DNA of 64,000 nt from Candidatus Omnitrophota bacterium (GTDB lineage Bacteria; Omnitrophota; Gorgyraeia; Tantalellales; Tantalellaceae): the NCBI GenBank assembly GCA_016783605.1, contig JADHWG010000002.1:107-64106 (forward strand), read 5' to 3'. A program made the position numbers and the translations under genes. The notes under the pieces are model-generated. The model made no database searches and was not told where the DNA came from. It saw only the letters and a program-made list of their open reading frames with translations. This document shows, piece by piece, positions 1,746 through 59,250 of this stretch (the stretch's first letter is position 1; each line of letters starts with the position of its first letter).

Positions 1746-4700
1746 ATGGGTAATTTTCGAGGGAAATTTTATGTGAAAGCTATCGCGGCGGTTGTCGCGG
1801 CGATCTTTTTGCATCAGCAAATCGCGTGGGCTCAAGGAGGGGCGGCTCCGGCGGCTATGCCTCCGGCGGCGCGCGTGAGTGAAAATGTTGGTGCCGGTCA
1901 AGTGGGGACCGATGTGTGTGACATTGATCTTCCTTACAATCTCGCGCATAGGGATGAAGTTTATACCGGCGCGCGCGAGGAAAAAATAATTCATCTTCAG
2001 GACGCGCATGCTTCGCTCAGCGCGCAGTATTCGCTGGTGAATCTTTTAGACGTTTTAGCGAAAAATTATGACCTTGAATTTATCGCGCTTGAGGGGACTG
2101 AGGGGGTTATTGACACGTCTCTATTAAAAAGTTTTCCGGATAAAGATATTAGAGAAAAAACCGCTGACCTTCTTATGCGGGAAGGGCGGATGAGCGCGGG
2201 TGAGTTTTTTCAAATAACTCGTGACGAAAAAAATATAATGCTCTGTGGAGTCGAGGATAACGAGCTGTATAAAGAGAATCTTGATGGGTTTTGCCAAGTG
2301 ATCGAACAGAGAGAGCCTCTGGTTAAAATGGTGAAGGCGTTTAGAGGGCAAATAGACGCGCTTGAAGAAAAAGTGTATTCGGACGAACTTAGAACGTTCA
2401 TATATAGAGGAAGGGCGCATAAAAACGGGACATTAAACTTTTCCGATTATTGGCGAGAAATGAGCCCGTTTCTTGAGAAATTCGGTATTGAAACCGGCAC
2501 TTTACGTGATATGCCTCTTCTTACCCAATCAATTGAGCTCGAAAGAAAAATAGATTTTGAAAAAGCGAATACCGAAAGAGGCGACCTCATAAGTGACTTA
2601 ACGGGCCGCCTTGAAAAAGACGAATTAAAAGCGCTAGTTCTGGAATCGGTTAATTTTAAGGAACAAAAAGTTTCACCCGCGAATTTTCATAAATATCTTG
2701 AAGAGCTTGCCAGAGAAAACAATATATCCCTCTCAGCGTACAAAAATTTCAGCATGTTCACCGAATACATATCGCTTTACGAATCCGTAGACATATTTAA
2801 TCTCTACAGTGAAGTGGAATCTCTCGAGAAAACTATTCGAGGAAAACTGTACAGAAATGAAGATGAACGCGAGCTGAATAAAATATCCGTTATGACGGAA
2901 CTTCTCCGTGGGCTATACAGCATAGAACTTTCATCGCGCGATTTCGGGTTTTTCGAAGAAACCCGCGAAAAATACGACGCGAAAAAGTTTGCCGCGTTTA
3001 TAAAAGACAAATGCGCTAAGCATAAGGTAACGATTGAAAAAGGATACGATCTTGCCGAGATGCTCGGGGGAATAAACTCCGCCGCCAACTTTTATGAAAC
3101 CGCCGCGAAGCGCGATCGGCTCATGATCCAAAATACGCTGAAACGCATGAAAAGTGAGAAAAAACGTGTCGCGGCGCTTATTACGGGAGGTTATCACACA
3201 AAAGGTCTCACCGAAATAATGAAAGAAAACAAACTTTCATACCTTATCATATCTCCGAAATTTGAAAAAGACGAAGAAAGGCCCTATGTCGCCGTTCTTA
3301 CCGGCAAAAAGAAACCTTACGAGGAGCTTCTAGAATCCGGAAAATACCAGATAATGGCGGCGGCGTGGAACAATCCTAATGACACCCCGGAAAGTCAGAT
3401 TTCAAAAACTGAGGAAATAGTGGCTTTAACCCGGGCAATAAACGATATGACTCAGGAAGACTGGGAAAATAACGGCGAGGAATGGAAAGGTTCGTTTTGT
3501 CCCGGTTCTTCTGTTGAAATTTTTAATGAGGATAAATTTAAAGAACTAATCGAGACTGTGGAAGGAAGAGAAATAGATGGCGCTGTTGTTACGGGATATA
3601 AGGGCGGTGAGCCGCGCGTCGCGCTAAAGCTTAATGAAAAATCCGAGATTCAACGAGTAGAAATTACCGAAAAACACAAGAGAATCTGGGAAAAACGTAC
3701 TGGTAATATTATGCTACATGTGAACCAAGTTTTTTCGATGACAAAATTAAAAACAGAGAGTGACATAGCGGAGTCAGTGGGCAATAAAATCGATAATCCG
3801 ACAATAGATACAGAATGGCAAAAGAGGAATATGATCATACATCCGGCTTTGGTGATTTCGGAAGAAAATATAAACAATACCATCGATCGGATGAGACCCA
3901 CTGTCATAGGGGTGGGACAAGATGAAAATGCGGAACAGAAAAGAATAACCGAAGAAATAAAAAGAGTGCTCAAAATAAAAGGAATTAATGAGGCAGAATT
4001 AAAAGATAAAATCGTTAAGAAATTTATAAACGCGGCTATGGAAGAGCTTAAGAGAAGGAATGAATCTAATCAAACGCCGAACCAAGATGAGCCTTTTGTT
4101 TTGACGTTAGAGAAGATAGAGAAGATTTGCCAAAGTTTAAGGGATGAAGCAGATAGTAGCTCAGTTGGACAGAATCCAGATGACCTGCGTAAGAAAGTAG
4201 AAAGAGCATTTATGGAAATGGGAGCTACGGAAGCATTTCTTAAAAGCGGCGCTGTCGAGAAACAGATACAACTATTAATGAAGATGATCGAGAAAAAAGA
4301 CGAGAAGAGTAACCCTAACGAGGCGAATTCGATATTTGCAAAGCTTGTTTCCAAAGATGAGGCATATTGGAACAATGTCGAAGAAGATATAAAGGGATAT
4401 CAAAAAGAATATAACACTACATATGTGAAAACTTCAAAACCATCAATATTTGAGCAATCTGAATTGGAGCAAACTGAAATAGATTTGGTTCGGGTAGTAA
4501 AAAAAGAAGAGAAGCTTGGGCTTGTTGATAATTCCTTGGTAGATTTTTTTAAAAAACTAAAAGATATGGAATCGGATAACGTATCTACTGAAGCACCGGA
4601 TCAAGTTAAGACGCCGCCTGCCGAGTTTGAAATTAAAGATCATGAAATAGGCTCCCGCGCGTATCCAAAATCAACCAAATTTGTAACAAATGAACCCACC

Positions 4701-7700
4701 CAGACTCAAGAAGATCCGATTGAATCCAAAGACATAAAAAAATCGTTCATGGAAAAAATCGAAGCTCAACTTGTGAGAATGACTTTTACGGCAACGATAT
4801 TTACCGCGCTCATGTTGATAATACTGCGGGGTGTAACACATAATCGAGCCAAAAAGGAAGAAGAGTACGCACCTCTAGTGGTACAAAAAAAAGAATCTGA
4901 CGAAAAATCGGTGGATGAGGCTGACGCTGTGACGGTTAAAAAAGACAACTTTATAAAATCAATTCCGGGAAAAATCGTAAAGTTTATAAAAGACAAAGCC
5001 AATTTGGTTATAAGGCATAAAAATCTGATCATAATGATGTTTGTATCTATCGGTTCGATCGCGGCGATTGCAAACGCGGAGTCTTTTGGATTTGTTCAAA
5101 CGATAGAAAGAGTGTCATCAACACCTCTATTCGCGACGTCAACATTTGGGATGGTAGAACTCATGATGGTGGTGGGGGCCGTAGCTCTCACTGTCTGGGT
5201 GTTTTTGAGTTTGGGCAAAGGAGAAATAGGCGCGGAAAGAAGATTACCTATTATTGAGATACTTCGCAAAGAAACCTGCAAGCTAGATATTATTGTTGCG
5301 GGAGTTTTCGCGTATCAGACCATTATTCAATATATGGCGGACGGTGCTTTTACGAAAGGCGTGTTCCTTTTTGCGATAGCAACTGCCGCTCTTATTTTTT
5401 CCGTATGGACATTCATAAAAGATGGACTGCTTGTAAAAACGGCGGGTGTGGAAAATAGAGAAACAAAGATGATAGAAGGAGATTTGAAATCTGGTGCTGT
5501 TGTAATGACAGTTACAAAAAAAGTTGAGGATGTTCCAGTTGCGGAAGTAACGAGTCGAAAAAAATTACTTTTTGTGCAAAGCAAAAATTGGTTAAAAAGC
5601 AAATTTGCGTTAGCTAAAAAATATAAAGACCTGATATCAGCTCTGTTCGTTTCTTCAATAATAGGCTTAGTGTCAATATCGCAGGCATATGACGGGAGTA
5701 TTGGGTTGAGTCCTTCTTCGATTATGGCGATGGCGGTGTTGTCCGGTTGTACAATAGGTGCGCTGGTATTTTTAATAAGAAGCTTAGATAAAACAAAAAA
5801 AATTAGTGATAAAAAAAACGCTTCTGTAGAAATTCCAAAGATAAGAAATTTCAAAGAATTAAAAGGATACGCGGGAATAAGCATTGTAACTTCGGCGATG
5901 ACGCTTTTAATTGGATATTTTCACAAACCGCTTTGGCAGATATGCTTGGATCTTCCAATGAAACATGAAATATTAGGTTCAATAACGGTTGGAGCGGGAC
6001 TTTTAACAAGCGCGGTCGTGGCGGGAATCGCGATATGGTTTACGTGGATTACACTAGACGCCGCAATACCCATGGGGCTTAAAAAAGCCGGTTCTTTTGT
6101 TAAGGGCATATTCCGTTTTGTAAAGACGTATTTTAGCGTGTTTATTGGGACAGTGTTTGCCGGGACATTGTGGTCGACGGTTGCGCGGGCGGTAAACAAT
6201 TCTGCGAATGTCGTAAGTATATTTGATGTGACCCAAGGAACAAAATTTAGTGTGATTATTCGATCGATACCGCGTAACGTGATCGTGCCGTTCGCTATTG
6301 TGATGATGACGGTTATTACGGCTGTATGGATATTTTCTGCGATTGTAAAGGCGGTTCGTTTGTATAGAGCACAGGAGAGAGGAAAAGTATCCGAAGAAGA
6401 AGTAGGAGAAATTAAGAAAAAACAGAACCGTTTTAATATTCAGGTATTTTCCAATATGGCGTTAATTCTTATCAGTTTTTTTGCGGCAAATAATGTGTCT
6501 TTGACCATGGAATACGCGCTTGTAATTATCCCTTTTGCTATTTTGGGACTATGCGTATATTCAATATATTCCGCGATACATTTTGTGTGCAAGCTTGTGC
6601 AGGATTACAGGAAACCATTAACGGAGCAGAAAAAATCGGAGCGGAAAAACAAAAAGCGGAGCTCAAAAGGAGAGGTTAAAATTTCTCTTCTTACGGGTAT
6701 GGTTTTTATGTTTATCGTGCTTGCTATAGGATGCATAACGCCGAAGGTTAATACAAAATCGGTTTTGGATAAAAGTGTGGCAAAAACGAAGATGGCGGAG
6801 ACGGTTGGGACGCAGAAAATGGATGATTCTAAAAAAATGGTGCCGCGAACAGAAACTGAACCGAAAAAGAAAGAAATTAAGATATGCGGGAATACACCGA
6901 ACGTGCATGACGCGGCGTGTGATGTCATAATACTCAACCCGAGTTATGGCGCGGTACAGGATGAGTGGCCGGATGAGATTTATTTTGATTATTGGGGAGA
7001 CATTACGGGGTATGAGGTTGAAATTATTTTTACGGAACTAGGAAAAAGAGAAAACACAAGAATTGAAATTTTCTTAAAAAACAAGAAATACATCAATATG
7101 AGTTCGGGTGCGGTAACGCCGGATAAAGATGGCGTAGTCAGGTGGAACCCGGCGGCTGTTGAGGGATGGCTTTTCAGAAAGTCAATGGCAAAGGCAAAAG
7201 CGAAATTTATAAAAAATAACGCGGCAATAAGTATTAAATTTCGAGGTATGGACGCGGAAGAGGGGGAAGATCATATAGAAGAAATCCGGTTTGTCAGGAA
7301 AGAAGTTAATAAGTCAAAAGGTGTATCTCGTTCGAAATTATTCACATGGGCGCCGATAATCGCGCTGACTTCATTTATTACGGGGTCGGGGATATTTAAC
7401 ACGGCGCTTGCGGGGGCGGCGGGGCTTGGCTGGATGAATGAGATTGAGGCTATTGCCGTGTCATCTCCATGGGGTGGATTGAGTCTAATGTGTTTATTGT
7501 TTGGGGCTATGTTAGCCGGCGCGGGGGCAATAGCATATATTTTTACCAATCTCTTGAACCTCTTTTCTTCGGAAATGGAAGGAAAAACTCTGCTTAAGGT
7601 GAGTCTGATCTGGATGGTATCAACCGGAGCAATCTTAGGATTATTGGCGAAAATCGGATCGATCGCAATCTGGGTAAACCGGTTTTTTGTTGGTGATATG

Positions 7701-10700
7701 CTTATGTCCTCCGGACTTACGACTATCGGAATGTCGACACTTTTAATCGCGCTCTTTGGGACGGCAATGATATCCGCAGGGTTGGTAATGAAAGGGACGC
7801 ATGATGTGTACTTTCAAAATAAAAAACGTGCTGAGGTGATATTTTCAAGCTTGGGCAGTGCGGCGGGGAGCGGGGTGTTGTATGTTCTGGCGCGCAATTG
7901 GCGGTTAATCGGTAATGCTTTGGAGGTGCTTGTGGTCGGAGGCCCGGCTAATATCGTTTTCGCCGTGGTTATCACGGTTGGCGGTTCCATAGGCACTGTA
8001 CTGTTTGCCGTTGCGACACTTGTGGCTATATCAAAAACGTGGTTTAAACTTGGGGAATTATCTGCCGAGAGAAAGCGTTCGGGTACGGCGCTTTTTACCG
8101 TTATAATGCTCATATTCGGTATTATGTTTTGTTGGGTTCCGGGAGTTGGGGCTAGTGGCGAAAAACCGGAAGATTTACCGGCGGTGAAATATACGGAGCC
8201 GAGAACTCCGGGGAATTATGTAGAACCGCGAGTGCCGGGGATCTATGTAGAACCGCGAACGCCGGGGACTTTTTCCGCGGCGCCGGATTCGGTAACTCCG
8301 AGAACAGATGTCGGGACGGATGAAGAAATTATACCTTTAACGGGGTGGTATCCGGAAACTTACGACGACAGTCAGGGGATTGTTGACGTTTATTGCGGCG
8401 AAGACGGAATATTGAAAATAGTCGCCGATATGAGAGGGCAGGATGATTATAGGCGTCAAGGTGAGGTTTACCGTAATCTTGATGAAGCAACAGATTTTAC
8501 CGGTAAAAAAGAAAGTTTTAAGGTTCGTGTGCCTGAAAAATACGCTTTGAATCAGGAGAATGGTGTCGTGCCGTATATGATGGATGTGAACGGGAATAAG
8601 CAATACGCGGATAGGGTGAAAATTACGCGAGCCGGGGAATGGGTAACTGTCGAGATGGTTCCTATGCCGTATGGGCGCACGCGGTTGAAAGGAAATGCGG
8701 GGAGATTCAAGTGGACGGATCCCGGGTTTGATCCTTCTCTTGGGATAACAAGGGTGGGTATAAAGTTTGTTATTGATGAGAAAAGTACGGATACGTTTAT
8801 TTCGGAGAATCCGGATGGGACTGTCAAAGACGGTTATATTGAAGTTGCGGATATCAGGATCGTGCCGATGGAAGGTGTTGTTCATGAGGCCGAATGGCAG
8901 AATGTTTATAGAGACGAGCCGATTGTTGTTCCGGCAGTAGACGCGGGGACGTTTGTCGCAAATTCAGGGGTGTCTCTTTATCTAAAGACGTATGAACGGG
9001 CAATAGGGACACCTGACGGTGTAACTGCGCATTATGAAGAAACTTTGAATGAATTCAAAAAATTAGCATCACGGGGAGTTAAAAAGGCGAGAATACTTCT
9101 GTGTATAGGATCAAAAAATACAAGCGGGATAGAATTTGATGATAACGATATGCCGATTGGGTTTAAAGATTTTGAAGGAGAGGACCTTAGCGGAGAAGAA
9201 CTTGCGATACTTGATTTTGCAAATCTGATAAGAATCGGTACGGAGACGGATATAGAAATGGCATTAGTTTTGCACAATAAAGATATTACGGAAGCACATC
9301 CCGGTGTTTTTGGCGATGAGGAGAAACGGGCGGCGTTAGTTGCTCTTGACAAGATCCTGCTTGATGGAGCGAAAGAAATGTTGGAGGAAGATGTTTGGGA
9401 ATATTTTGAATATGGGGAAGCACTGAATGAACCGGATGACGCAGGAACACATTCCTGGTATACCCAGGAATTCGTAAAGGCAGAGAATAAAATGATTAGG
9501 GACGATATCGGAAAACCCGTGACTCTCGGTCCGGCAAAAAGAGAACATATAGGTAACTGGCTCCTTTCGGATTCGGAGATGCTTAAACCAGGAGATATGT
9601 TCCAGATTCACGTATATAACGATAATCTTGATGAACTTCTCGCGGAGCTCAGGAGAAACATAGGTGAATTTGAGTGGCCGGAAGGTGTAACGATTTGTTT
9701 TGGTGAAGCGCAGGGGAATATCGGATCAGATTCAGTTATATCTGAAGCGTTTCCTGCCGCGCATAGATCCGGTGCGAAAAGAATATATTTTTGGCGTGAC
9801 AACCGGCTCTCTCCGAAATATACGGTGGATGAGGATGAATATCAAAGTACCGCACAATACATGATGAGCGCGGATTATGATACTGATGTGCCGGATGAAG
9901 TGGATGATACCGAACTACCTATAGCTCGTGCCGCTGTTAGCGATCAGACAGTAGATGAAGGTGTAGAGATAATCTTTAACGCCGGCGAGTCAACTGATGA
10001 AGGTGGAGAAATAGAAACTTTCAGTTGGGATTTTGACGATTATGATGGCATACAGGAAGACGCGGGTACGGTAACGGCAACACACACCTACGATGAACCA
10101 GGAGTTTACTTGGTAACTTTAACCGTAACTGATACCGCGGGAAATTCCGGAACGGATACCTTAACGATAACAGTGAATGAAGCTGTCGTGGATGACGATA
10201 CGGATGTAACGAATGAGACGGACGTGGATGTGACAGATGAGACGGACGAAGGTGTGACGGATGAGACGGACGGGGATGTGACAGACAAAGCTGACGATAC
10301 GGATACAAATAAAGACGACGTTGATAAACCCGGAAGTACGCTTGATACTTCTGACGGAGGGTGTTATATCGGTACAGCGTGGTTTAATGATAAATCTGAT
10401 AAATCGAAAGATATGAAACGTGAAAACACCCCGGGCGCGGAAGTGCTTGCGCGTGAAGGCGTGGGAAATACGCTTTTTGATAAGGTGATAAATTGGTGGG
10501 AGGGTTTAAAAACTTCGGTTAAAAAGCATTTTAACTTGGTTGTTATGATAATGTTTGGAGGAGCGCTTTTCTCGACTATCGCGCGTGCGGGAGAGCCGGG
10601 TGCTTTTGGGGAGGTGACAAAACAGCTTTTCGCGGTGTCGACGTTCGGGAAAGTGGAACTTGCGGTGGCGTCTCTTTCCGCCGCTGTCGCGATTGTAACT

Positions 10701-12753: not shown

Positions 12754-12984
12754 ATGCCTACAAAAAAACCACGAATAAATGTAGTGCTTGAACCAAGATT
12801 GTACAAAATCTTGGTAAGAGTGGCACATGGAGAAGGGATTTCTGTATCTTTGGCGGCAAGAGATTTGATAAAGGATGCTGTTGAACTTTACGAAGATAGG
12901 TACTGGGCAAAAGTCGCTGAGGAAAGAGAGAAAACTTTTTCTGACAAGAAGGCTTTAACCCATAAGGAAGTTTGGGATCAGTGA
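12754..12984 (+). CDS. Ribbon-helix-helix (CopG/RelB-like) antitoxin
   Basis: ATG at 12754 inside track ORF 12634-12984, giving 76 aa. MPTKKPRINVVLEPRLYKILVRVAHGEGISVSLAARDLIKDAV is a typical RHH antitoxin N-terminus. Its stop overlaps the start of the downstream RelE-like gene. Confidence 0.7.
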   Translation: MPTKKPRINVVLEPRLYKILVRVAHGEGISVSLAARDLIKDAVELYEDRYWAKVAEEREKTFSDKKALTHKEVWDQ

Positions 12985-13286
12985 AATACACTGTATTTTA
13001 TCACCAGGATGTAAAACAGAAAGATCTTTCGTCTATCCCGGAAAATTTAAAGCAAAGAATTCGTAGGGCTATAGAAGAAAAATTAATGTTGGATCCTGAA
13101 AACTACGGTACTCCTCTAAGGAAAGGTTTACATGGGTACCGAAAATTGCGAGTAGGAGATTATCGGGTTATTTACAGCATTCGGAAAAGTAGTGCTAAGA
13201 TTAAAATTTTCAAAATTGGACACAGAAAAGAAGTATATAAGAATGCGCATACACGTGTAAAAGAAGTGTCTTACCTAACAAAATGA
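12981..13286 (+). CDS. relE: RelE/ParE-family toxin
   Basis: Track ORF 12972-13286. GTG 12981 overlaps the antitoxin stop as gTGA; TTG 12972 is an alternative start. LRKGLHGYRKLRVGDYRVIYSIRKSSAKIKIFKIGHRKEVY matches the conserved RelE/ParE core (RVGDYRVIY...I..IGHRK). Confidence 0.75.
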   Translation: MKYTVFYHQDVKQKDLSSIPENLKQRIRRAIEEKLMLDPENYGTPLRKGLHGYRKLRVGDYRVIYSIRKSSAKIKIFKIGHRKEVYKNAHTRVKEVSYLTK

Positions 13287-13298
13287 AACTTCATCTCC

Positions 13299-13490: not shown

Positions 13491-13552
13491 GAAGAGAAAA
13501 ATTCCGTAGTATTTTTTTTTAAGTGAGAGGAATATGCTATAATTAACAAATT

Positions 13553-29165: not shown

Positions 29166-29179
29166 CGGCGCGAGTAATT

Positions 29180-34396: not shown

Positions 34397-34485
34397 GCCG
34401 GAGTGGCGAAACTGGCAGACGCGCTGGATTCAAAATCCAGTGGGACTTAACTCCCGTGTGGGTCCGACTCCCACCTCCGGCACCA
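34397..34485 (+). tRNA. tRNA-Leu (anticodon CAA), type II with long variable arm and encoded CCA
   Basis: Acceptor gccggag pairs with ctccggc. The anticodon stem ctgga/tccag has loop ttCAAaa. The long variable arm is tgggacttaactcccgtg and the T stem is gtggg/cccac. Confidence 0.85.
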
Positions 34486-43008: not shown

Positions 43009-43239
43009 GTATATTGTCACAATTCAGTTTGAAATACGTAGGGGCACGGCATGCCGTGCCCTTATTATAAAATCAATAGTTGATTTTGAATGCAGTAGGA
43101 CGCTGTCGAAAAACACACTTTTCTGTCATCCTCGCGCTTGTCCGGCAAAGCCGGACAAGCGCGAGGATGAAATTTTGGGAATATTTTGCGACAACACCAA
43201 TGGGGAGTGTATATCGTTACCTGAATTGTGACAATATAC
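43009..43239. mobile_element. MITE-like nonautonomous element bounded by perfect 19-bp terminal inverted repeats (gtatattgtcacaattcag / ctgaattgtgacaatatac). It encloses a GGGCACGGCATGCCGTGCCC palindrome and a P2-family variant.
   Basis: Seen in sequence. The interior carries cgctgtcgaaaaacacacttttctgtcatcctcgcgcttgtccggcaaagccggacaagcgcgaggatgaaattttgggaatattttgcgacaacacc (P2 flanks with a different loop). Track ORFs 43007-43231 and 43080-43364 are artefacts. No transposase is present. Confidence 0.45.
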
Positions 43240-43529: not shown

Positions 43530-43558
43530 TTGACATTTTTCTTTTATTATGCTATAGT
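43530..43558 (+). promoter_or_regulatory. Sigma70 promoter (TTGACA-17-TATAGT) about 80 nt upstream of giant gene 2
   Basis: Seen: ttgaca tttttcttttattatgc tatagt. Confidence 0.5.
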
Positions 43559-52600: not shown

Positions 52601-55600
52601 ATGGCTCGTATAAAATTGCGTATTATCCACCGGGTGCGGTTGTTTCTTCTGAAATATATTTTTATTCTGCAGACAAAACGCTCAATAAGATCAGCTATTT
52701 CGATCCCAATACAGGTATTCCTTCTTGCGACGCCTATCTGGACCCCAACGGTACGGAAATTAGCAGAGACTATTTTGATCCGAATATTCAGGATTTAACC
52801 AAAACAGTTTATCTAAGCCCCGACGGGAAAGAAACTTTTATCGTACGCAATCGTTATTCATCGCATTTATCTCAAATGGATCCGAATGGGGGCACAACGG
52901 AATATTATTTTGGCAGGAAGAGTAGTTTTTTCCCGAGTTCATTTGATATCTATGACACTTCAGGAGACAGGGCAACTCTTTTGATGCTTGATACGAATAG
53001 CTGGAGTTTGAAAGAACGAACTGATAGGGGGACGACAGAAGATGGTATTTCATATGAAACTATTACGGATTTACAAACTAATACGACAGCTTATCGCGAA
53101 TACTGGTCCGGGACGCTTATACAAATGTACTGGGAATCTCGGGATAGCGAAGGAAATGTTGGTGGACGGATATTTTACGATAAAAAAGGCATGTCGGTAG
53201 AGACACGAGACGCGAAAGATCGTGTAACGTTGTTAAAAAAAGAGGATCGGATTACCGAGACCAAATATTATCCCGGTAAACATGTGAATCAAATGGAGAG
53301 TGCTCACACAGAATATCTTGTTCCGAGAAACGGGATTTGTTCTGAAGCCATTTGGATGAATAGAGACGGTTCAAAAGATGCTCAGCAGTTTGATTATGAA
53401 GACAAAACATCGATGTGGAGAGAATTTAATAAAGATGATTCGTATGAAGAGACATATTTTGATGAAGAAGGGAAACAGTCAGAAGTTATCTATTATGACT
53501 CAAACAACAATGTTATCCAGCCGGCGGAGGAAGATGAAGAAGGCATAGAAATGGGTAGAGACGTCAGCCACCTAAAGAGAAATGTCACTCATTTAACGAC
53601 TCTCAGCCTAATCGCGTTTGCCGCCAGAGAATTAATCTTACCGGCTGTGTCTGAAGCTTACGGTGGAGGTTTTATAACCCGCGCGGTGATGACTGGTTTT
53701 GAAAATCCGGTTATTTCGGTTTTGATTCTTATGGCTCTTATCGGACTTGAGTTTTTTGTATACAAACTAAGGGTAAAAGCACTTAGTAAAAGAGCAGGAG
53801 ATTTTTACGCGCGCTCACGTGCTCGGACAGAATGGCTGATCGCGGCAGTTTTAACCATTTTTGTTTTTGGAACGGTTTTTCTTGTAAAAAATATTAAGCA
53901 CAAAGAACCGGCGCAAAACGTACAAAAAACTGAAGATATTCAAATTAAAAAGTCGGAAGAAGAAATTTCCGTTGATGTTAACGCGATCATTCGTCGTGTG
54001 AAAAAAAGAAGATACGGAACATATGGAAGACCGGAACCTTCTTCGCTTAAAAACATTCAATTGCCTGAAGCGATGCGGGAATTTGAGGGCTTGAGATTTC
54101 TTTATGAAAGTTCGGATGGCAAAACAGAGTTTTATGAGTCTCCGTATGAAAAGTTTGAGAAAATTAGTTTTCGATATAATCCAAACGATACTCTTATGCA
54201 GATTTCGGGTTTTGACGCGGAAGGAAACGATTATACAATTTATCGATCTTGGCCGAGGGGAAATAGTACTATTTACTCGCACACAGATGATTTGAAAAAA
54301 GATATGATCTTTAACTATGATTCGAATGGGAAATTAACTGATCAGACTAAGTATAATGATGACGGAGAATGTGATTGGAGAGACAATCAGGAAAACGGCA
54401 TATGGTACCACCATACATATGAGTATGGCCCGGACGGTTGGCTTAAAAAAGAAACTAAATTGGATGCTTTCGGGATCACCCCGCTAAAGGAGTGGGAGTA
54501 TGAGCCTGGAACTTATCTTCTGTTGCGGGAGACCAATTCCGATAAATCTTTTATAGAATATGACTACTCATATGACGACCCTGACGATCCGGAGGGATAT
54601 GAATGGAAGCAATTCGGGTGGCATTACGATCCCAATGGAGGGCTTGTTAAGACAGTCGAATATGATAGAGAGGGGAATATTGTTGATATTATCGATCCTG
54701 ACGGTAATCCCGCGCAAATGGTGGTGAACCCGACGGATGGTTCGTATTATTTTTATGCTATGGAGTATGGTGATAGAGCAGAATACCATTATTCTTCAAA
54801 GAATGAGTTTTTTAAAGAAGTAAGATATGATGGATCCCGAATATCGCGAATTATTGAACGCGTGTCTCCTAACGAAAAAAAGGATACACATATTTGGAAA
54901 GATAACACGTATAGCACCTATTATTCGGAAATCAATGAAGACGGGGATTTTATAAAAACCAATCGTGTGGAATATTTTAATTCCGAAGGATGGTCTATAA
55001 AAAAATATAACTACGAAACTAAAGAATGTAGTAAATTTGAATATCCGCCAAACGAAGCATATTTTATTGAGAAGTGCTATAGAGGCGAGAATTTCGAAAC
55101 ATTTATTGAAATTGTTCGTCATCCGTATCCCCAGAGTAAAAAATCAAGCGCTTATGACTCGAGCACAATGAATTTTTTAGCAAAAAAGGTTTTCTCGCCA
55201 ACCGGAGCAGGTTCCGCCGCGGCAGGGGCAATTTTGCTTTTTCCCGCCATCGCGAATGCTATAGGCAAAGTTTCGGGTTCGGCCGGTGTTCTGCCTGTAT
55301 CGACGGTTTTATTGCGTTTTTTAAGCCATCCCTTGAGTGCTGGAATTTTTGGGGCTGTGTTTGGAGTTATTGCATATCTGGCAATTGATTGGACTGCCGA
55401 GAAAATTCAAGAAGCGTCTGCGTCTTCAATAGGTTTTCCGGGAGAGATAAAGCTTACACGGTCAAGTTTTGTTAAGGGAGCTATTGGCGGTGTTCTTTTG
55501 TTTTTATGGTGGTTGTCTAATCCTTTTAGAGCATTTGGTTCAGATAAATCTGATCCATTTTTGAAAATATTTAAGTTGAATTCAGACGAAAAGGAGATAA

Positions 55601-58600
55601 AAGAATTTGATGTACAAAAGTATTCGGGAGCTTTTATTTATAGCGCAATGGTATTTTCTGAAAAAGGAGAGCTGATTGGAAAATTTCCTACTTTTCTCAT
55701 TAATAGAATTTTGGATAAGGAGACACATAATATCGTGGGATATTCATATATAGGGAAAGCAGGTATTTTCAATAAAGCAGGGCGTAAAATTGGAGCCATT
55801 ACACCGGACAGGGATATACAAAATATAGAAGGAAAAATTATCGGAAAAGTTGATGATTATCATAAAGGAGATTTGAAAAATAAAAGGGGAAAGATTGTTG
55901 CCATTCGCAGGGAGAGCGGCTGTGTCATGCTGGATATAAATGGGACGAATTACTTATTAAAACACGAAGATTTCTATTCTGAAAGAAAAGAAATGGTTAG
56001 CAAGTTTTTTAAGAATCTTTCGGTTGACGCGCAAAAAAAGATAATATCCGTTCTTGAATTATCAAAAGGGAGAGAACTTTCTTTGTTTATCAGAGATGTT
56101 GTTCTTACTTTAAGGGAATGGCATCTGCGAGAACATAATCCTATGGGGATAGGTGAACTGAGACAACTTATCAAAGCAGATGAACGGTCCAGTGCGATAT
56201 TAGTAAAATTCGTTTTATCCAATGAACTTTTCAGGGATCTGTTTGATGTAAGTTTTAATGAGCTTGTCAGTCGCGCACAAAAAACTAACAAATCATTCGC
56301 AGAATTTTTGCGAGTAGATGCTGGATTAAAAGATAATGATGTAGTTAAATTTTCGGGGATTTTAGCTTTATTCGGCGGATTAGAAAAGGCTGTTAAAGTT
56401 TATCCAAAATATCTTACGGGTGTAGTGCCTAAACTCTTTGAATCAGTAAAACAGTTAAAGAGAGAAGCATATTTTACAGAAAGGTTATATGAAAAAGTTC
56501 TGGCAGATAAATTTTTACATAAGACGGATTTTGAAAATGCACTTATAAACCTATATAAGTCTTTAGACCCCAAAAGTGTTAAAAGAGATCTGATCGAAAT
56601 AACTTCCAGCCTTTTAGGAGATAACCTTAGCGCGAACACAAAAAAAGAATTAAATTTAAAATCAATCGACACTTCTGCATATAAAAAGGTGCCATTGGAT
56701 AGTGTTGTTCACAATGATACCCTGGTTGTTAAAAACTATTTTTATGACAAAAGATGGTATGACTATTTGCTAAAAGTTTTGCCTGCCTTTGGATATCCTG
56801 AAGGAGGAATAAAAATAGAAAATAACGCGTTTCTTGCAACTCAAAGAATTAACGGAATTATGGTTAAGTTTATAGGAATCTTAAATTCCACAGAAGAAGA
56901 AAAGGGCGACCCGTTTTCTGAGTTAAAAGCTGGTATTCTTGTTCACAGAGGACATCAGGGAAAAGAAACACGAACGACCTTCAACGGCAGAGAAGCGCAA
57001 GTACCGTTACTTTTGCCGTTAGGTTGTCGGAGCGCGGGAGACGCGGATTGGCTTATCGCAGGGAAATATCCTGAAGCCGTAATGTGGGGAACCGGTGGAA
57101 CCGGGGAGGGTCTCAAAAACACGCCGTTTGTATTTCATCTGGTAAAAGCCATATGTAAAAAGGAATATACTACGTGGAAACAAGCTTATTCATATTTGGA
57201 ACAAAGACTTGGTAAAGGTGTTGCGAGAAACTATATGAGACCTGACAGTCTTACATTTATTCTTATCAAGGAGCTTAAAAAACGATACCCCGATGCTGTA
57301 AAAAATTATAATTTCCAGCTCTCAGAAACAACCCCCGCTCGCGCCGGACCTCGTCAATACGGCGATATCTTCGCGCCCAACATTACAAGAAGAGAAATGT
57401 TGCGCGGTAGTTTCCGCCTGCCGATAATCGGCATAATTCTTTCCGGCATTAGAAACAGGGATAAATCGACCGAGGATTCCCCGAGAAAAAACGATGAAAA
57501 AGAAAAAAGGAATGTTGAGAATAAAACGGAGCCTTTCGGGAAGAGACCGTTAAATATCAACCCAACGTTTATTGCACTGTTATTATTCGGTTTGTCAGTC
57601 TGGCTTTTGGGAGCGGAACGAAATCTTAGCAATATTAGTTGGCTGGCTATGGGTGCGCTATGCGGATGTCTTATTCTTTTTTTGGGAAAGCTCTATTCAG
57701 AAAAAGTGACTGCAGGGATAATAGTCTTTTTAAAAAATAACGGAGTATCAGTACCGACCATCTATAAATTGTGGAAGGTATCGAAGAATACACTACCTTT
57801 CGTGATGGCAATTATGTTTGTTATGACAGGCTGGTTTATGTGCAAAAAAATGTCTCCCGAGTATGCCAGTATGCGTATAGTAAGCGCCGTTGCTTTAAGC
57901 ATATTAAGCGGGTGTTTTTTGTTGGAAAAACAAACGGAAGAAGCTATGTTGCGACGAATGGACAAAATAGTAGTGGCAGGTCTCAATTTAATGATAAGAG
58001 TGTTCAGTTTGGTGATAATAGAGGGGTATAATTCAGCGGTGACAATTATTAATTCACTCAATGAAAAAATAATGGAGTTTAGAAATGGTGTTCGTAAAAA
58101 TGATAAATCCGATTTTACGATTACGCTTGGCGTTTCGTCTGAGATCTATAAGAAACTTATCTCGAAAGACGCTATTTCCGAATTGTACAAAAGGGGAATT
58201 AATCGCGTGGTAAGCTTAGACAAATTCGGTGCGAGAGAAGAGATGATGCGTGAGCTTAGTGAGAAAACAAAAGGTGAAAAGGTTATCTGTCTGCTTTTGG
58301 ATGAAACCACGTTCGGGCAGTTGGATCTAAAAGATTCGCAGGGTAATATGAAAATGAAAAAATTTATGAACACGGTTGATCTATTTGTCGAAAGGGCTCA
58401 AAAAGATATTTTTCCCTTGATGCATCCGGAACTTACGCGAATCAATGCCGAAACAGTAAAAAAGATCAATGACGCCGCTAAACTTAGGGGTTTTCTTGAC
58501 ATGCACGCGAGAACTTTGCGGGAAGTGGAATCTCTTGAACTTGTGGACAAAAGTATTTATGACGAACGGTTGGCAGATCTTCAATCCGTGCTTTTTTCGA

Positions 58601-59250
58601 AAGTAAAAATGTCAAATAAAGCGAAACTGTTTGTGGAAAATATAGCTATAGGGAGGTGCAGTAAGAGGGAAACTAAATATATCAGCGTGTCCGCCGCGAC
58701 TGCCGCGGATATGAGGTTTATTGCCGGCGCTTTGGATAAAATGGGGCTTGACAAACAAAAGGCTTCGAAGTTCATACAGGTTCGTGTTTGTAACAAAAAT
58801 GTGACCGGTAAAAATCTGGATAAATATTTGAAAAGGACAGGACTCGGCGCGTATTTGGCGAGAGAAAACGTCAAAGTGGTTTCATCCGCGAATGAACTCG
58901 AACTCGAGAAGACGATGGATGTAGTAAAACAGACGTTTGGCAATGAGATTAATCCGGGACACGTATTTATCGGAGATTCGAGAGACATAGTGCAAGCGGA
59001 TAGAGATTCCTTGAAGCAAAAGAACGCGCCCGTATATGTTCAGATGCGCCGAGAAGGCACCGCGTCACAGCTTCTGCGCGCTATGATAGAACTTGCCGCT
59101 ACGGGGGAGAAGAGAAAGATAAAGATAAAAGGTCTTGGAATTATATTGCGGAAGGACGGATATTATGTCTTTCTGCCGGATATTAAACCGGTAATTAATC
59201 TATTGCGGGAAGAGATCGAAAACTATGAAACAATTTGTTCGATGGTGTAA
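43636..59250 (+). CDS. Giant multi-domain membrane protein, 5204 aa (paralog 2): N-terminal anchor, conserved N-module interrupted by an in-frame palindromic element, lectin/CBM-like beta-sandwich, possible glycosidase-like region, extended YD/MORN-like repeat region, scattered multi-TM segments, conserved C-module
   Basis: Single uninterrupted track ORF. The N-terminus LFQQIAWAQGG, the IYHIQDSHASLGAQYSIVELLDSLATDYNVNLIALEGAEG region and ALVTGGYHTEGLTKIMKEKKLSYLVIAPKF are homologous to the ORF at 1746. The C-terminal about 430 aa (KYISVSAATAADMRFIAGALDKMGLDKQKASKFIQVRV ... VYVQMRREGTASQLL) are homologous to the C-terminus of the ORF at 1746. YD-like repeats (FNYDSNGKLTDQTKYNDDGE, VEYDREGNIVDIIDPDGN) lie at about nt 52560-55140. 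Confidence 0.85.
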   Translation: MGKEKSLYIFTDVRLKKRRIIRVIAFLVASLYLFQQIAWAQGGAPRASSISRPVSGTEGVSRGELPKVPYKFGKTHEFSVNTNETGEIIYHIQDSHASLGAQYSIVELLDSLATDYNVNLIALEGAEGYIDTSVLQSFPDKEIRRDAADRLMKKGLMGAAEFFTVTRDEKEIDLYGIEDEELYRKNVNEFREVVEERSVKIANIDAFLTQLKLLEKEICSERLLRLNRYSFLHRNCELSFSNYRKELLEFTDRFKIDEGSGNFSPNPHPEQGEGSLVNFSKGSIEILQPFGLQDEESGNSPTPQIDTGKYSELAKLTEAISLEKSIDFQKANTERRALIDKLSELLDKAALKELVIKSVDFQQNMISPSEFHEYLVGMSKSRKIPPETYPNLNMFARYISVYEKVNLFYLTKECEFLEKEIREKLYRNEDERKLVEITQMTRMLRRLYSMELTPGDHSFIKTERARRSAEEFTLFIKEACKKYGVIFEEGYDIPEMFAGIEPAMTFYETAEKRNQHILKNTVTRMKKSGARAAALVTGGYHTEGLTKIMKEKKLSYLVIAPKFESGEERPYIAVLTGKKKPYQKLLKTGKYQLAMEPFFYRSNMEEMKEDLFYALGRVVLKGEDLKKVKDALYNNHKIEYEKRISQKEKETKFDVITPTELKAFLDNIHVIRSGTSAVIGDKTDKNSIIVLARKNSVYNFKTATPSQKRKLLNRISEGKMPEEMEGIGTNITDFVHDRSQILTKLDKSTPAIVQKILANLTEGKIDENEIKEQAVILLKRKGMPSDWQSDIGLKKRVNRVIALVRQGFAAKKTEKEKKKFGEWKKAIDVEKYWENLKNVLGEVPEEVLVNGIDFEFANFVDHMWSFIQQIIDSEKFKREIIQCYNQKNADADKNYQDIIQRLKSLRSQIFSNQTFNILGDDVSPEIRKHWNYILSEYVGCRWFSDITEKHAEIFEDTLHEKITSQNKSEIEKYTKHFRKNLPFKSKKKVPLRIFMKYLYIKILEATKYWENEVDVYIESKEETCNNGVKYFINNIDMKNLEKDRVKKGEKDICVVLKEMMDILLVGNLYSDFANPTKEKKREKYPVDDSAETLDHFFKLREQTRRGKDTELHVLHDNVGLELVSIFHLIDFCIKNEIVKKVVLHTKNYPYAISDVVGEKDIRMQINALQNASELSDIAFEKTGNIKYMEQLSDDITGHLKNQNIVIAKPHWFPTLGQNFLDIPEDYYNELKKADLILAMGDGWYSKLFLTRNWKYTADAKEILSYMPAPTVIFRIGKNPIIAGLTAKMAEYLKKIGKWWKPPRFGMIHFARGGKYARKKAYNEYETHEEAIDEQLEIAYAEGRFKAVSDEIVAPVAEFFKTSGYEKISKKLTKDPNTATRQIAINEVTGIEDFRGHASWRGIHISAELDDEEKQKVLVHEVGAYYRLTHGLNLDLEALYLDYLKKKEIDKKTAREKFKKLKEMKELPEGFSPERDYSGEPLRVIEGNAKKATFFHIIGRKIKRIVFRVIGRKEKTCSLYVIEGKAKMERDPGYFPSENSGMTSVELSRNSRMTKERTSQNSGQRAVIPVEEPGSIFRNYKKLFKLLSIFTFILGLIIVPAIKLTHFMTPSKNAPPFEYRIKESVKPVTDFLVKGLSAHGPTDIIKIEPQGTFSIEHGVEITAYNALYDVPSNAFVSDYYLMFVFKEGVSPGTRLQIFLKNREWKNLYAYPGSPTGGKVIFRPGIDPCNVCQFKPEETPYGDISAIGVKVWDGSSGNALSNLKKVYVVKNGIKPEDVLREKKTPLSQEKKESQKTPVPQFVKTPQEKLPAPPVAIPQEKSKKQKSSDPDAIVVPLDIPGTWYGQKWPDSQAISNVRYDPKRKALVGDFNIIQGHPNLDRGEVIVDVLDLGISPFNFDKWELTADVKVDVKEGSFGHTPNNADGVGFFVKTGPAQGWKNAYEWENHPENEVGDWKTISFSRGEFNKIDRVDPQDGFPLKDPIIRMFGIKLGAGKDHTGSKFTKAKGKILVRNVRITPRREKYAPPDFWPKAPSARKKVSGEIKIPITTNWPVREDAGNWAVKATHVKGGILALTVKLRGGDPEGNHNKGETYLPLYDKRGKRVVPVPGLPEEGYFDARGKVIKSMVWVPKSYAEGKKIPSAIQTGAHDKHYNYQNNAWNPSLITKNLTGKWHELKFYPMDPAENEPGYTDDDFLVVAFGELLFKTGLPGATSPDYKWDGHIYFTDIRIETDDRVFPEPVPPLIKTKMYAENPKDKPPVPIELFEMLSGAGGYGIFDFDHIPEGRAALEEKIKKMPPNARVWRHMALFGSLSPNGPILFDENDNFIDFGFIDPVTGKTVIIGVEGMKKCVDERLSILKQYGKVEITSLVAHDAADGKKKKENRIEGDRPNLFTDSKKFKRFLQGIKPILEHIRDKWRAPVPDSAGLDLIQHNFNNPKTVVAMLELFNEPLNMDTAQVPVPCIQRRIHELFELVYEIDPTWLLSTGMRDYESWKYFAHFVLPEYYDGIKNVKNPFYKNVVPQSHWYGDKESVTPLATNVGKFFMPEHVLFWLKGELDPRTPEEYKAAIGIVEVMRQVYVSAYGGGLFWVDDEFLPNWKDYQKFFKDNTAQVPFTPPTPAKPVQVVITQEVLKTLPNTIKAIKEGSLTYRDVTIFAQSEYPITFKMLTEKDVNIKLTRIGLRTDIIEALTGLAESVILRGYPLNYETISRAFKEIITLHAAKELMPHAKMLQENGIAVTHKNLSRVLKKTSPSLIPKCAEKAPPSVIPEFAEGEYPGSCTHKKLIMSLAAMLTMAPVVASANWGNIVMESGIFTTVMNFCFFAVPILVFSAVMVGICLTAQKVLIDPLANVLDPGSSPASSAGFGRDDKKEEGSDWNNTSGHFTKKVKIAGRALPGVVVVLLLIAVGVIYWMQKTTPPEFVPEKPVYEDVIDTKEEKLEIEEPRQKKFSKKLKANSPRDGPEDAEKREREDTLEKERAEFDKIFGMSKVITHADGSYKIAYYPPGAVVSSEIYFYSADKTLNKISYFDPNTGIPSCDAYLDPNGTEISRDYFDPNIQDLTKTVYLSPDGKETFIVRNRYSSHLSQMDPNGGTTEYYFGRKSSFFPSSFDIYDTSGDRATLLMLDTNSWSLKERTDRGTTEDGISYETITDLQTNTTAYREYWSGTLIQMYWESRDSEGNVGGRIFYDKKGMSVETRDAKDRVTLLKKEDRITETKYYPGKHVNQMESAHTEYLVPRNGICSEAIWMNRDGSKDAQQFDYEDKTSMWREFNKDDSYEETYFDEEGKQSEVIYYDSNNNVIQPAEEDEEGIEMGRDVSHLKRNVTHLTTLSLIAFAARELILPAVSEAYGGGFITRAVMTGFENPVISVLILMALIGLEFFVYKLRVKALSKRAGDFYARSRARTEWLIAAVLTIFVFGTVFLVKNIKHKEPAQNVQKTEDIQIKKSEEEISVDVNAIIRRVKKRRYGTYGRPEPSSLKNIQLPEAMREFEGLRFLYESSDGKTEFYESPYEKFEKISFRYNPNDTLMQISGFDAEGNDYTIYRSWPRGNSTIYSHTDDLKKDMIFNYDSNGKLTDQTKYNDDGECDWRDNQENGIWYHHTYEYGPDGWLKKETKLDAFGITPLKEWEYEPGTYLLLRETNSDKSFIEYDYSYDDPDDPEGYEWKQFGWHYDPNGGLVKTVEYDREGNIVDIIDPDGNPAQMVVNPTDGSYYFYAMEYGDRAEYHYSSKNEFFKEVRYDGSRISRIIERVSPNEKKDTHIWKDNTYSTYYSEINEDGDFIKTNRVEYFNSEGWSIKKYNYETKECSKFEYPPNEAYFIEKCYRGENFETFIEIVRHPYPQSKKSSAYDSSTMNFLAKKVFSPTGAGSAAAGAILLFPAIANAIGKVSGSAGVLPVSTVLLRFLSHPLSAGIFGAVFGVIAYLAIDWTAEKIQEASASSIGFPGEIKLTRSSFVKGAIGGVLLFLWWLSNPFRAFGSDKSDPFLKIFKLNSDEKEIKEFDVQKYSGAFIYSAMVFSEKGELIGKFPTFLINRILDKETHNIVGYSYIGKAGIFNKAGRKIGAITPDRDIQNIEGKIIGKVDDYHKGDLKNKRGKIVAIRRESGCVMLDINGTNYLLKHEDFYSERKEMVSKFFKNLSVDAQKKIISVLELSKGRELSLFIRDVVLTLREWHLREHNPMGIGELRQLIKADERSSAILVKFVLSNELFRDLFDVSFNELVSRAQKTNKSFAEFLRVDAGLKDNDVVKFSGILALFGGLEKAVKVYPKYLTGVVPKLFESVKQLKREAYFTERLYEKVLADKFLHKTDFENALINLYKSLDPKSVKRDLIEITSSLLGDNLSANTKKELNLKSIDTSAYKKVPLDSVVHNDTLVVKNYFYDKRWYDYLLKVLPAFGYPEGGIKIENNAFLATQRINGIMVKFIGILNSTEEEKGDPFSELKAGILVHRGHQGKETRTTFNGREAQVPLLLPLGCRSAGDADWLIAGKYPEAVMWGTGGTGEGLKNTPFVFHLVKAICKKEYTTWKQAYSYLEQRLGKGVARNYMRPDSLTFILIKELKKRYPDAVKNYNFQLSETTPARAGPRQYGDIFAPNITRREMLRGSFRLPIIGIILSGIRNRDKSTEDSPRKNDEKEKRNVENKTEPFGKRPLNINPTFIALLLFGLSVWLLGAERNLSNISWLAMGALCGCLILFLGKLYSEKVTAGIIVFLKNNGVSVPTIYKLWKVSKNTLPFVMAIMFVMTGWFMCKKMSPEYASMRIVSAVALSILSGCFLLEKQTEEAMLRRMDKIVVAGLNLMIRVFSLVIIEGYNSAVTIINSLNEKIMEFRNGVRKNDKSDFTITLGVSSEIYKKLISKDAISELYKRGINRVVSLDKFGAREEMMRELSEKTKGEKVICLLLDETTFGQLDLKDSQGNMKMKKFMNTVDLFVERAQKDIFPLMHPELTRINAETVKKINDAAKLRGFLDMHARTLREVESLELVDKSIYDERLADLQSVLFSKVKMSNKAKLFVENIAIGRCSKRETKYISVSAATAADMRFIAGALDKMGLDKQKASKFIQVRVCNKNVTGKNLDKYLKRTGLGAYLARENVKVVSSANELELEKTMDVVKQTFGNEINPGHVFIGDSRDIVQADRDSLKQKNAPVYVQMRREGTASQLLRAMIELAATGEKRKIKIKGLGIILRKDGYYVFLPDIKPVINLLREEIENYETICSMV
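44407..44545 (+). repeat. Complete P4-family palindromic element (139 nt) inserted in frame within giant gene 2
   Basis: Seen: gaggggtcggggaatttttctccgaaccctcatcctgagcaaggcgaaggatctct ... agagatccttcagccctttggacttcaggatgaggagtcgggaaactccccgacccctc. The arms match the intergenic half-copies at 27547 and 28447. It is translated as EGSGNFSPNPHPEQGEGSLVNFSKGSIEILQPFGLQDEESGNSPTPQ and coincides with an indel of about 46 aa relative to paralog 1. Confidence 0.8.
48233..48357 (+). repeat. Imperfect palindromic segment inside giant gene 2 that resembles the intergenic P2 family (gatcccgg...ccgggatgacaag ... ctgtcatcccgg...ccgggatc)
   Basis: Seen in sequence. Related short segments occur at 51893-51960 (tgtcatcccggaatttgccgaaggcgaatatccgggatc) and at 52190-52230. 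Confidence 0.5.

Follow-up and report, generated by a model that had tools for sequence, protein, structure and literature searches.

How do two proteins of several thousand residues come to share both of their ends and nothing in between, and what might the shared ends do? This question is raised by a 64,000-nucleotide stretch of DNA from a Candidatus Omnitrophota bacterium (assembly GCA_016783605.1, contig JADHWG010000002.1, positions 107 to 64,106 of the forward strand; hereafter the window), which carries two giant genes, A and B. As an earlier sequence-only reading of the window had stated, A occupies positions 1746–12503 (+ strand) and encodes 3585 amino acids (aa), and B occupies positions 43636–59250 (+) and encodes 5204 aa; both start with ATG and are complete open reading frames (ORFs) without internal stops. 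Our overall explanation, to which we assign a probability of roughly 0.6, is that A and B belong to a modular, membrane-threaded protein family with an exported N-terminal head (N-module), a cytoplasmic C-terminal tail (C-module) and processing driven by the head. Within this explanation, the architecture of the family and the assignment of the head to a fold are well supported.

Pairwise alignment by BLASTP, with SEG filtering off, delimits exactly two blocks of similarity, one per terminus. The N-module block pairs A10–536 with B21–593 (46% identity over 579 columns, E = 3.9e-142), and the C-module block pairs A3149–3585 with B4794–5204 (32% identity over 442 columns, E = 1.8e-46). Beyond these blocks there is no similarity between A and B at E < 1e-3, and neither protein contains internal repeats that BLASTP detects. 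The terminal similarity is therefore real and not a matter of low complexity, and every motif string that had been quoted in its favor is found verbatim: QQIAWAQGG (aa 24 in A, aa 35 in B), HLQDAHASLSAQ (aa 83 in A) with its counterpart HIQDSHASLGAQ (aa 91 in B), FIALEGTEG (aa 112 in A) and LIALEGAEG (aa 120 in B), ITGGYHTKGL (aa 479 in A) and VTGGYHTEGL (aa 536 in B), KYISVSA (aa 3385 in A, aa 5014 in B), and FVQMRGEGIVSQLL (aa 3513 in A) with its counterpart YVQMRREGTASQLL (aa 5134 in B).

At the nucleotide level, identity between A and B is merely 67–71% and is confined to short pieces of the N-module, and A and B are accordingly old, diverged paralogs. The same figures lead us to reject a recent gene conversion or recombination cassette between the two genes.

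The objection that the ORFs could be assembly chimeras, which the sequence-only reading had itself raised, is answered by public sequences. Protein A is identical to the public protein P0047, and its sequence is present on three public contigs, one of which is a 68.7-kb ENA contig whose name states a coverage of ~51. Protein B has a collinear ortholog of 4607 aa, P0049, with 68% identity over B1–2833 and 58% over B3337–5204; the gene order is as for B (HicB ... arginase - LeuRS - Vgb-like - ComEC - giant gene), in two JGI (Joint Genome Institute) metagenomes. The sole large difference between B and P0049 is a B-specific insertion of aa 2834–3336 (52135–53643, +), made up of two predicted transmembrane (TM) helices and a Y/D/T/S-rich soluble region with YFDPN-type motifs. 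Because it adds a pair of TM helices and both of its flanks resemble one and the same TM segment of P0049, this insertion looks like a topology-preserving cassette.

Head, tail and family

The N-module comprises aa 30–536 of A (1833–3353, +) and aa 41–593 of B (43756–45414, +), where the motifs QDSH, ALEG and GGYH are found at aa 93, 122 and 538, respectively. An AlphaFold2 (AF2) model of the module from 31 sequences (predicted local distance difference test score, pLDDT, 82.8; predicted template-modelling score, pTM, 0.72) has a TIKI/EreA/ChaN-like alpha/beta core that is split by a helical insert: the core covers aa ~60–170 and 475–505, with its strands at aa 67–169 and 475–504, and a helical bundle of ~300 aa (aa 172–470) is placed between its two parts. 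The central parallel beta-sheet of the core is flanked by helices, as in the TIKI/EreA/ChaN/TraB fold.

Active members of the TIKI superfamily combine a parallel beta-sheet core with a 2His/2Glu set and a conserved arginine (PMC6254334). In RRSP this set consists of E3900, H3902, E3930 (+28), R4001 and H4030 (+29), and in Bcr135 the catalytic residues are H85 and E113 (+28) (PMC6254334). The invariant residues of the N-module, in A numbering, are D86, H88, E116, E153, R456, G481, G482 and H484. Five of these (D86, H88, E116, R456 and H484) do not vary across 31 sequences whose identity to A is only 26–54%, and each of the five lies at the end of a core strand in the model. The order and spacing of the 2His/2Glu set are those of the reference enzymes, with D86-x-H88 followed by E116 at +28; the first acid, a Glu in those enzymes, is an Asp here. 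The conserved basic residue is likewise present, R456 being located 28 residues before H484, compared with 29 residues between R4001 and the second histidine of RRSP.

In Pfam, the N-module has no significant match to PF01963, PF05139 or PF04187; the match to PF04187 ('Tiki superfamily, ChaN') reaches E = 0.057 and 13.8 bits against a cutoff of 27.7, covers aa 440–486 and occurs in 3 of 31 members. A profile search with the N-module retrieves no TIKI-superfamily member from the PDB. Since PF04187 stays below its cutoff and the PDB profile search is empty, the head is classed as a fold-level relative and not as a family member: the model gives good support to a TIKI/EreA/ChaN/TraB relative with an intact catalytic constellation, which by sequence falls outside every existing Pfam family. 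More generally, neither the N-module nor the C-module matches a Pfam or NCBIfam model, and phmmer and profile searches of the PDB give no specific match to either. The proposal that the two modules define a family covered by no named one is thus upheld. The further statement that they match no nameable family holds at the level of sequence only, as fold and motifs now place the N-module in the TIKI/EreA/ChaN/TraB superfamily. We note that the helical insert (profile positions 190–248, A aa ~180–245) gives a marginal match to the EF-hand pair of troponin C (E = 0.003–0.02), which contains a loop-like segment, 'kkGkisFseyw'; the match is probably helix-loop-helix noise, and could reflect a degenerate helix-loop-helix or chance.

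The C-module, aa 3169–3585 of A (11250–12503, +) and aa 4797–5204 of B (58024–59250, +), is an orphan two-lobed alpha/beta domain of ~400 aa without a recognisable relative. It ends in ...NYEKMMMSV in A and in ...NYETICSMV in B, and its conserved motifs include SxSA, KTGL..YL and G[IT]xSQLL.

Both modules recur far beyond the window, and the search for additional paralogs that the sequence-only reading had called for was productive. An N-module search yields 42 proteins, mostly truncated by contig ends and all but one in records named Omnitrophota or Omnitrophica; in none of the 42 does a Pfam domain fall within the N-module. A scan of GTDB representative genomes, with one genome per species, gives at least 581 N-module loci confirmed by tblastn, in records labelled Omnitrophota or 'uncultured Planctomycetia' (binned metagenome-assembled genomes, MAGs), often with two or three loci per assembly and at times with two on one contig. 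Most N-module ORFs of the 79 loci that were kept extend beyond the 10-kb flank and therefore exceed 3860 aa, and tandem pairs of N-module genes are common among these loci (L041, L055, L069, L078 and L036). Short 'standalone' N-module ORFs in L031, L040 and L042 were set aside as probably interrupted genes, for a long open stretch directly follows each of them. Judged by these records, the family is found almost only in Omnitrophota.

For the C-module, an exhaustive profile search of 1.84 billion representatives gives 77 clusters, compared with merely 4 matches in a word-indexed search. In all 77 the module sits at the extreme C-terminus, with a conserved ...NYE(x)5-7[AV] ending. Among 23 distinct C-module proteins with a length of 2000 aa or more, 16 (14 matches plus A and B) begin with the N-module, head and tail lie in a single ORF also at loci L002, L020, L035 and L041, and a hidden Markov model (HMM) detects the C-module in 6 of the 15 complete N-module ORFs of the loci. 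Proteins with both modules range from 1023–1196 aa, the lengths of the minimal members (L055b, 1023 aa, at locus L055; P0062, 1196 aa), up to 7013 aa. Apart from the ortholog of B, the similarity of relatives to A and B is confined to the two termini; the pattern of constant termini around a variable, multi-TM middle, first proposed for A and B, is borne out and extends to other members of the family.

Predicted topology, cargo and the possible role of the head

Each protein begins with a leader, aa 1–29 in A (1746–1832, +) and aa 1–40 in B (43636–43755, +). The leader of A has a basic n-region and an 11-residue hydrophobic core before HQQIAWA/QGG, and that of B ends in ...FQQIAWA/QGG, where the slash marks the predicted cleavage site; the motif QQ[IV][GA]W[AST]Q[DEGN]G is a conserved feature of the family. 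The sequence-only reading had described a hydrophobic N-terminal anchor. The basic n-region, the h-region of 11–15 residues and the A-W-A/Q site, which is of the classical signal-peptidase I type, look instead like a Sec signal peptide that is predicted to be cleaved.

By Kyte–Doolittle hydropathy, A has ~23 TM segments in three clusters and B has ~13 that are scattered. The clusters of A are at aa 1009–1664 (4770–6737, +; ~12 segments), aa 1914–2134 (7485–8147, +; ~7 segments) and aa 2928–3168 (10527–11249, +), the last of which is followed by the basic stretch IRRNYEERVK; the last TM cluster of B spans aa 4641–4796 (57556–58023, +). In both proteins a TM segment immediately precedes the C-module. 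Smaller relatives indicate on which side of the membrane the two ends lie. P0062 consists of leader, head, TM segment, K/R-rich loop, TM segment, short loop, TM segment, K/R-rich stretch and tail, whereas P0086 consists of leader, head, one TM segment, Enzyme I and HPr of the phosphotransferase system (PTS), and tail. Because the loops of P0062 are rich in lysine and arginine and the single TM segment of P0086 stands before Enzyme I and HPr, which are necessarily cytoplasmic, the head is predicted to be outside the inner membrane and the tail, including that of A, in the cytoplasm. In addition, in 13 of 16 members the region that follows the last TM segment has more K/R residues than the region ahead of it. 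The host cell is probably diderm, since the window encodes an Mla system, and 'outside' may thus mean the periplasm: for A and B the prediction is inner-membrane anchorage, with exported modules that may be periplasmic rather than displayed on the cell surface.

The middle regions carry different domain sets, as had been proposed: a GH5-like barrel and a PKD domain in A, and a DUF89-like domain and Y/D-rich stretches in B. The barrel of A, a candidate member of glycoside hydrolase (GH) clan GH-A, spans aa 2392–2711 (8919–9878, +) and contains the motifs LNEPDD (aa 2561) and FGEAQG. No Pfam GH model scores above threshold in A. The region is homologous (E = 4e-10) to a neighbouring ORF starting at 62186, which in turn gives a sub-threshold match to Glyco_hydro_2_C, a GH2 TIM barrel, at E = 3.4e-4, and a joint profile of the two aligns, NEP motif included, with the GH5 mannanases 3vup (E = 1.3e-5) and 2c0h (E = 1.3e-3); homology and profile thus lend indirect support to the GH-A barrel assigned in the sequence-only reading. 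The PKD domain assigned at the same time is confirmed at aa 2724–2810 (9915–10175, +) by Pfam PKD_4 (E = 2.2e-18, 66.5 bits against a cutoff of 27) and by PKD matches in the PDB down to E = 6.5e-10; an acidic D/T-rich linker follows it.

The neighbouring ORF (62186–64000, +) leaves the end of the window and encodes at least 605 aa, which include a signal peptide (MTLFSKIKISVLALVLFSVCTVVRA/DDG), a Y/D/E-rich region and GH5-like barrel motifs (WDIMNEPE ... IAGEIG). It has no N-module and was rejected as a third member of the family. As it is homologous to A 2392–2711, the putative glycosidase module is present twice within 50 kb, once on its own and once as part of a giant protein.

In B, an ARMT1/DUF89-like domain at aa 886–1289 (46291–47502, +; Pfam PF01937, E = 1.3e-25, 90.7 bits against a cutoff of 25) had been missing from the earlier list of domains and is kept in the ortholog P0049. 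From its position ahead of the first TM segment, it is expected to share the N-module's side of the membrane. Y/D-rich stretches are present at aa 3001–3350 and at aa 3500–3760 (54133–54915, +). The latter has a single, sub-threshold match to RHS_repeat (17.4 bits against a cutoff of 22), and the stretches have neither a PDB match nor a Y.[YF]D..[GN] motif. The 'YD-like repeats' described earlier are therefore weakly supported and come down to a Y/D-rich composition; an RHS/YD shell, which would call for multiple repeats above threshold and a length of at least 700 aa, is not supported. Among relatives, the cargo is a beta-helix plus RHS (P0053), DUF89 (P0049), PTS Enzyme I and HPr (P0086), or nothing recognisable.

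These features are brought together in the following scheme. The leader would direct Sec-dependent export, head first, and the polypeptide would then be stitched through the inner membrane by TM bundles that alternate with soluble modules. Hydrolytic or adhesive cargo would be displayed on the outer face of the inner membrane, and the tail would be left in the cytoplasm as an assembly or regulatory handle. The head would be an active peptidase or esterase, acting in cis or on sibling proteins, that matures or releases the exported modules. This processing role is our best guess, and a tentative one; we prefer it because the head is the best conserved part, nearly every giant has its own copy, and it takes the position held by C39 and S8 peptidases in larger giants. 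Such peptidases, near the N-terminus of larger Omnitrophota giants, have been proposed to cleave the polypeptide (bioRxiv 10.1101/2023.11.21.568195).

Several observations weigh against this scheme. The HMM does not detect the C-module in 9 of the 15 complete N-module ORFs, some of which are interrupted, and some C-module proteins have no head, so that head and tail are not strictly coupled. Genuine shorter head-only forms exist, namely P0032 (518 aa), which is secreted and has a housekeeping gene context, and P0037 (953 aa), which adjoins another giant gene; they weaken the argument that there is one head per giant and that the head therefore acts in cis. Of the two modules, the head is thus the more widespread and the tail a frequent, non-obligatory partner. 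The number of TM segments in A is uncertain, and the side of each soluble module is predicted with the same uncertainty. DUF89 enzymes are normally cytosolic, yet the DUF89-like domain of B is predicted to be on the exported side. Finally, the equivalence of the catalytic residues is judged by their order, spacing and position at strand ends instead of by superposition in three dimensions.

The main rival concerns the substrate of the head, which would be another cargo enzyme that works in trans on external peptides, esters, envelope polymers of a host or prey, or signalling peptides, as do PrgY/TraB. Action in trans is the rule for every characterised active member of the superfamily (Wnt is the target of Tiki, Ras that of RRSP, and macrolides that of Ere), a standalone secreted head exists in P0032, the exported GH5-like barrel and PKD domain of A would fit a hydrolytic arsenal, and published work ties Omnitrophota giants to the degradation of prey cell walls. 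Maturation in cis or of siblings finds support in the conservation of the head, which exceeds that of any other part in proteins that are otherwise unrelated, in its constant place right after the leader, and in its repetition in several paralogs per genome, an unusual arrangement if a single trans-acting gene would suffice. We consider an enzyme acting in trans to be about equally plausible as one that matures its own or sibling polypeptides, and either role as possible rather than probable.

It is improbable that the head has no catalytic role and serves as a binding or structural domain, for example as a periplasmic docking site or folding nucleus, in the manner of the haem-binding ChaN or the inactive C1/C2 domains of PMT. 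The superfamily does include the non-enzymatic ChaN and PMT, the sole sequence-level match of the head is to the ChaN family, and the exchange of the first Glu for Asp would be in keeping with such a role; however, PMT lacks the 2His/2Glu set, and the invariance of both histidines, the glutamate and the arginine across 31 diverse sequences argues for catalysis. We regard as at least as improbable an arrangement in which the leader is not an export signal and the head, the DUF89-like domain and the other enzyme modules all remain in the cytoplasm, the proteins being membrane-tethered multi-enzyme scaffolds, an idea that has been considered in published work for some of the larger Omnitrophota giants. 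Ere enzymes and DUF89 phosphatases are cytosolic elsewhere, no TM segment separates the head of B from its DUF89-like domain, and the published topology predictions for giant proteins are admitted to be unreliable. Such an arrangement would leave unexplained the classical n-, h- and c-regions and AxA site of the leader, the single TM segment before the cytoplasmic Enzyme I and HPr in P0086 and the K/R-rich loops of P0062, which put the head outside, and the presence of GH5-like and PKD modules, which are typically exported. That the giant ORFs are assembly chimeras or fused calls of unrelated genes is scarcely credible: although the source DNA is metagenome-derived and interruptions or truncations affect several relatives, both frames stay open across 10.8 and 15.6 kb, A is identical on its three contigs, B is collinear over almost its whole length with P0049 from other samples and in the same neighbourhood, and the head-plus-tail architecture is seen again in dozens of independent assemblies.

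Surroundings of the giant genes

The neighbours of the giant genes are ordinary chromosomal genes, encoding HAD, Era, MgtE, PurH, FolC, MnmE, FolE, an L,D-transpeptidase, AccA, MlaEFD, CHASE2-SpoIIE, iPGM, HicB, arginase, LeuRS and ComEC. Across the 79 N-module loci there is no conserved synteny with HAD, ComEC, Era or other neighbours, and only P0049, the direct ortholog of B, is syntenic among the relatives. All 20-odd recognisable protein genes of the window are on the + strand, and the GC skew is positive in every 2-kb interval except 50001–52000 (-0.009), a pattern that suggests leading-strand DNA with genes co-oriented over a long distance. As to RNA genes, those for tRNA-Ala (34167–34242, -) and tRNA-Leu (34397–34485, +) were detected and no others. 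Immediately after the MlaEFD genes, a gene at 29162–31093 (+) encodes a fusion of a CHASE2 sensor with a SpoIIE/PP2C phosphatase.

Upstream of A, a promoter-like site at 1575–1603 (+) reads TTGACT-17-TAGAAT with an extended -10 TG and agrees with the consensus at 10 of 12 positions; that upstream of B, at 43530–43558 (+), reads TTGACA-17-TATAGT, likewise with an extended -10 TG, and agrees at 11 of 12. The hexamers on which the sequence-only reading based a near-consensus promoter before each giant gene are thus present as candidate sites, but the count of such matches does not exceed the expectation from shuffled sequence.

Two short repeats recur in the window. The perfect 20-nt palindrome GGGCACGGCATGCCGTGCCC occurs at 1441–1460, 1491–1510 and 43042–43061, three copies in 64 kb where none is expected; all copies are intergenic and lie upstream of a giant gene, A in two cases and B in the third. 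The palindrome may be a hairpin with a terminator-like or regulatory function, or else a small repeat element. The 17-nt repeat AACCTACGAGGTTGGTG, which is part of a hairpin, has nine copies within 2 mismatches (0.01 expected), at 705, 1651, 12597, 18938, 18984, 34274, 36003, 36026 and 43381, apparently in gaps between called ORFs. It looks like a REP (repetitive extragenic palindromic)-like element that is not specific to giant genes.

Genes of toxin–antitoxin type flank the giant genes. NTP_transf_2/Polbeta (~166–456, -) is located upstream of A and a ParE_toxin pair (~12754–13286, +) downstream of it, both at window coordinates converted from the gene calls of locus L081 with an offset of 255; HicB (33148–33645, +) lies in the middle of the window. 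At the locus of the B ortholog (L082, 24274–25100), a HepT-like plus NTP_transf_2 pair is found downstream of the giant gene. A Fic/DOC-family gene with a C-terminal HTH_17 domain (59472–60506, +) is directly downstream of B in the window. The gene directly upstream of A (796–1422, +) encodes a HAD-family hydrolase, and in P0027, an 871-aa protein of another Omnitrophota MAG, leader and N-module are joined to HAD Pfam domains. No HAD gene stands next to an N-module gene in the other 79 loci, and the HAD gene beside A and the HAD domains of P0027 may be a coincidence.

In related genomes, giant genes of different families cluster together. Downstream of P0049, an ORF at L082 26187–33824 (+) encodes at least 2546 aa without a Pfam domain and is unrelated to the family. 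Likewise unrelated is an ORF upstream of P0037, at L086 1–7856 (+), which encodes at least 5729 aa with many methyltransferase and HATPase_c domains.

Comparison with known proteins, and significance

That giant genes are a feature of Omnitrophota, as the sequence-only reading had stated, is already published, both for membrane proteins of the 'Archaeovorin' and the 'Dockerin-type' kind (West-Roberts et al. 2023, bioRxiv 10.1101/2023.11.21.568195) and in a catalogue of long proteins (Nielsen & Lui 2026, bioRxiv 10.64898/2026.06.07.730766). A and B resemble the published giants in phylum, in the very long ORF, in the signal peptide and many TM helices, in enzyme or adhesion modules that Pfam mostly misses, in putative carbohydrate-active cargo, in the hydrolase-like N-terminal domain beside the signal peptide, and in the C-terminal TM anchor followed by a domain that is predicted to be cytoplasmic. 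They are smaller, at 3.6 and 5.2 thousand aa (kaa), than the published size cut-offs of >30 kaa (West-Roberts) and >=10 kaa, and Pfam and NCBIfam detect in neither of them SecA_DEAD, C39, S8, dockerin/TSP3 or the glycosyltransferase/methyltransferase/NUDIX set. The head and tail types of the published giants also differ from the TIKI/EreA-like head and orphan alpha/beta tail of A and B, and natural minimal members of 1.0–1.2 kaa are a feature of the A/B family, unlike the published giants. Neither West-Roberts 2023 nor Nielsen & Lui 2026 mentions a TIKI/TraB/esterase-type head or the C-terminal domain. What is new is the specific family with its head and its tail; giant Omnitrophota genes themselves were already known.

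Characterised proteins with a related fold offer partial parallels. In PrgY and TIKI, an extracytoplasmic TIKI-fold domain is followed by a short TM anchor. Like PrgY/TraB and TIKI1/2, the A/B family would thus have an exported TIKI-fold domain tethered by downstream TM helices, with the same acid/His/Glu/Arg/His constellation. It differs from them in having no significant sequence similarity in the head and no match to PF01963, in the helical bundle of ~300 aa inserted in the core of the head, and in the thousands of cargo residues and the conserved cytoplasmic tail that follow, where PrgY and TIKI have their short TM anchor only. EreA-C and the Bacillus proteins Bcr135/136 have only 12–15% identity to the head and no sequence-level match; the Ere enzymes are soluble, cytoplasmic and ~400 aa long. 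MARTX toxins, like A and B, are very long modular polypeptides in which a TIKI-fold domain (the effector RRSP in MARTX) is combined with varied modules. The toxins rely on proteolytic processing, carry an autoprocessing protease and are a useful functional analogy for the idea of processing in cis.

It is well recognised that the giant proteins of Omnitrophota are puzzling, and most of their N-terminal sequence lacks annotation. The A/B family offers a handle on this puzzle, with a recognisable and assayable head of ~500 aa and a conserved orphan tail, and with minimal members of 1.0–1.2 kaa and paralogs of 2–7 kaa whose size puts structure prediction, heterologous expression and topology mapping within reach. 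With profile HMMs of head and tail, hundreds of Omnitrophota proteins labelled 'hypothetical, partial' would receive an annotation, and fragmented giant genes in MAGs would be easier to join. If the head is a maturation peptidase, this would support the idea of giant proteins as polyproteins; if it acts on external substrates, it would be a new class of enzyme in the predicted repertoire for attack on host or prey.

A bolder and rather doubtful proposal is that head and tail together form a dedicated chassis for building giant membrane-threaded proteins, and so a previously undescribed biogenesis system. The ancestral unit would then be represented by the 1.0–1.2-kaa members, with leader, TIKI-like head, three TM helices and tail; cargo would have been added as topology-preserving cassettes bounded by TM-helix pairs, comparable to the insert at aa 2834–3336 of B; and tail and head would cooperate in the insertion, checking or proteolytic maturation of the polypeptide. 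If true, such a system could account for the ability of Omnitrophota to evolve, and to cope with, proteins of ever greater size.

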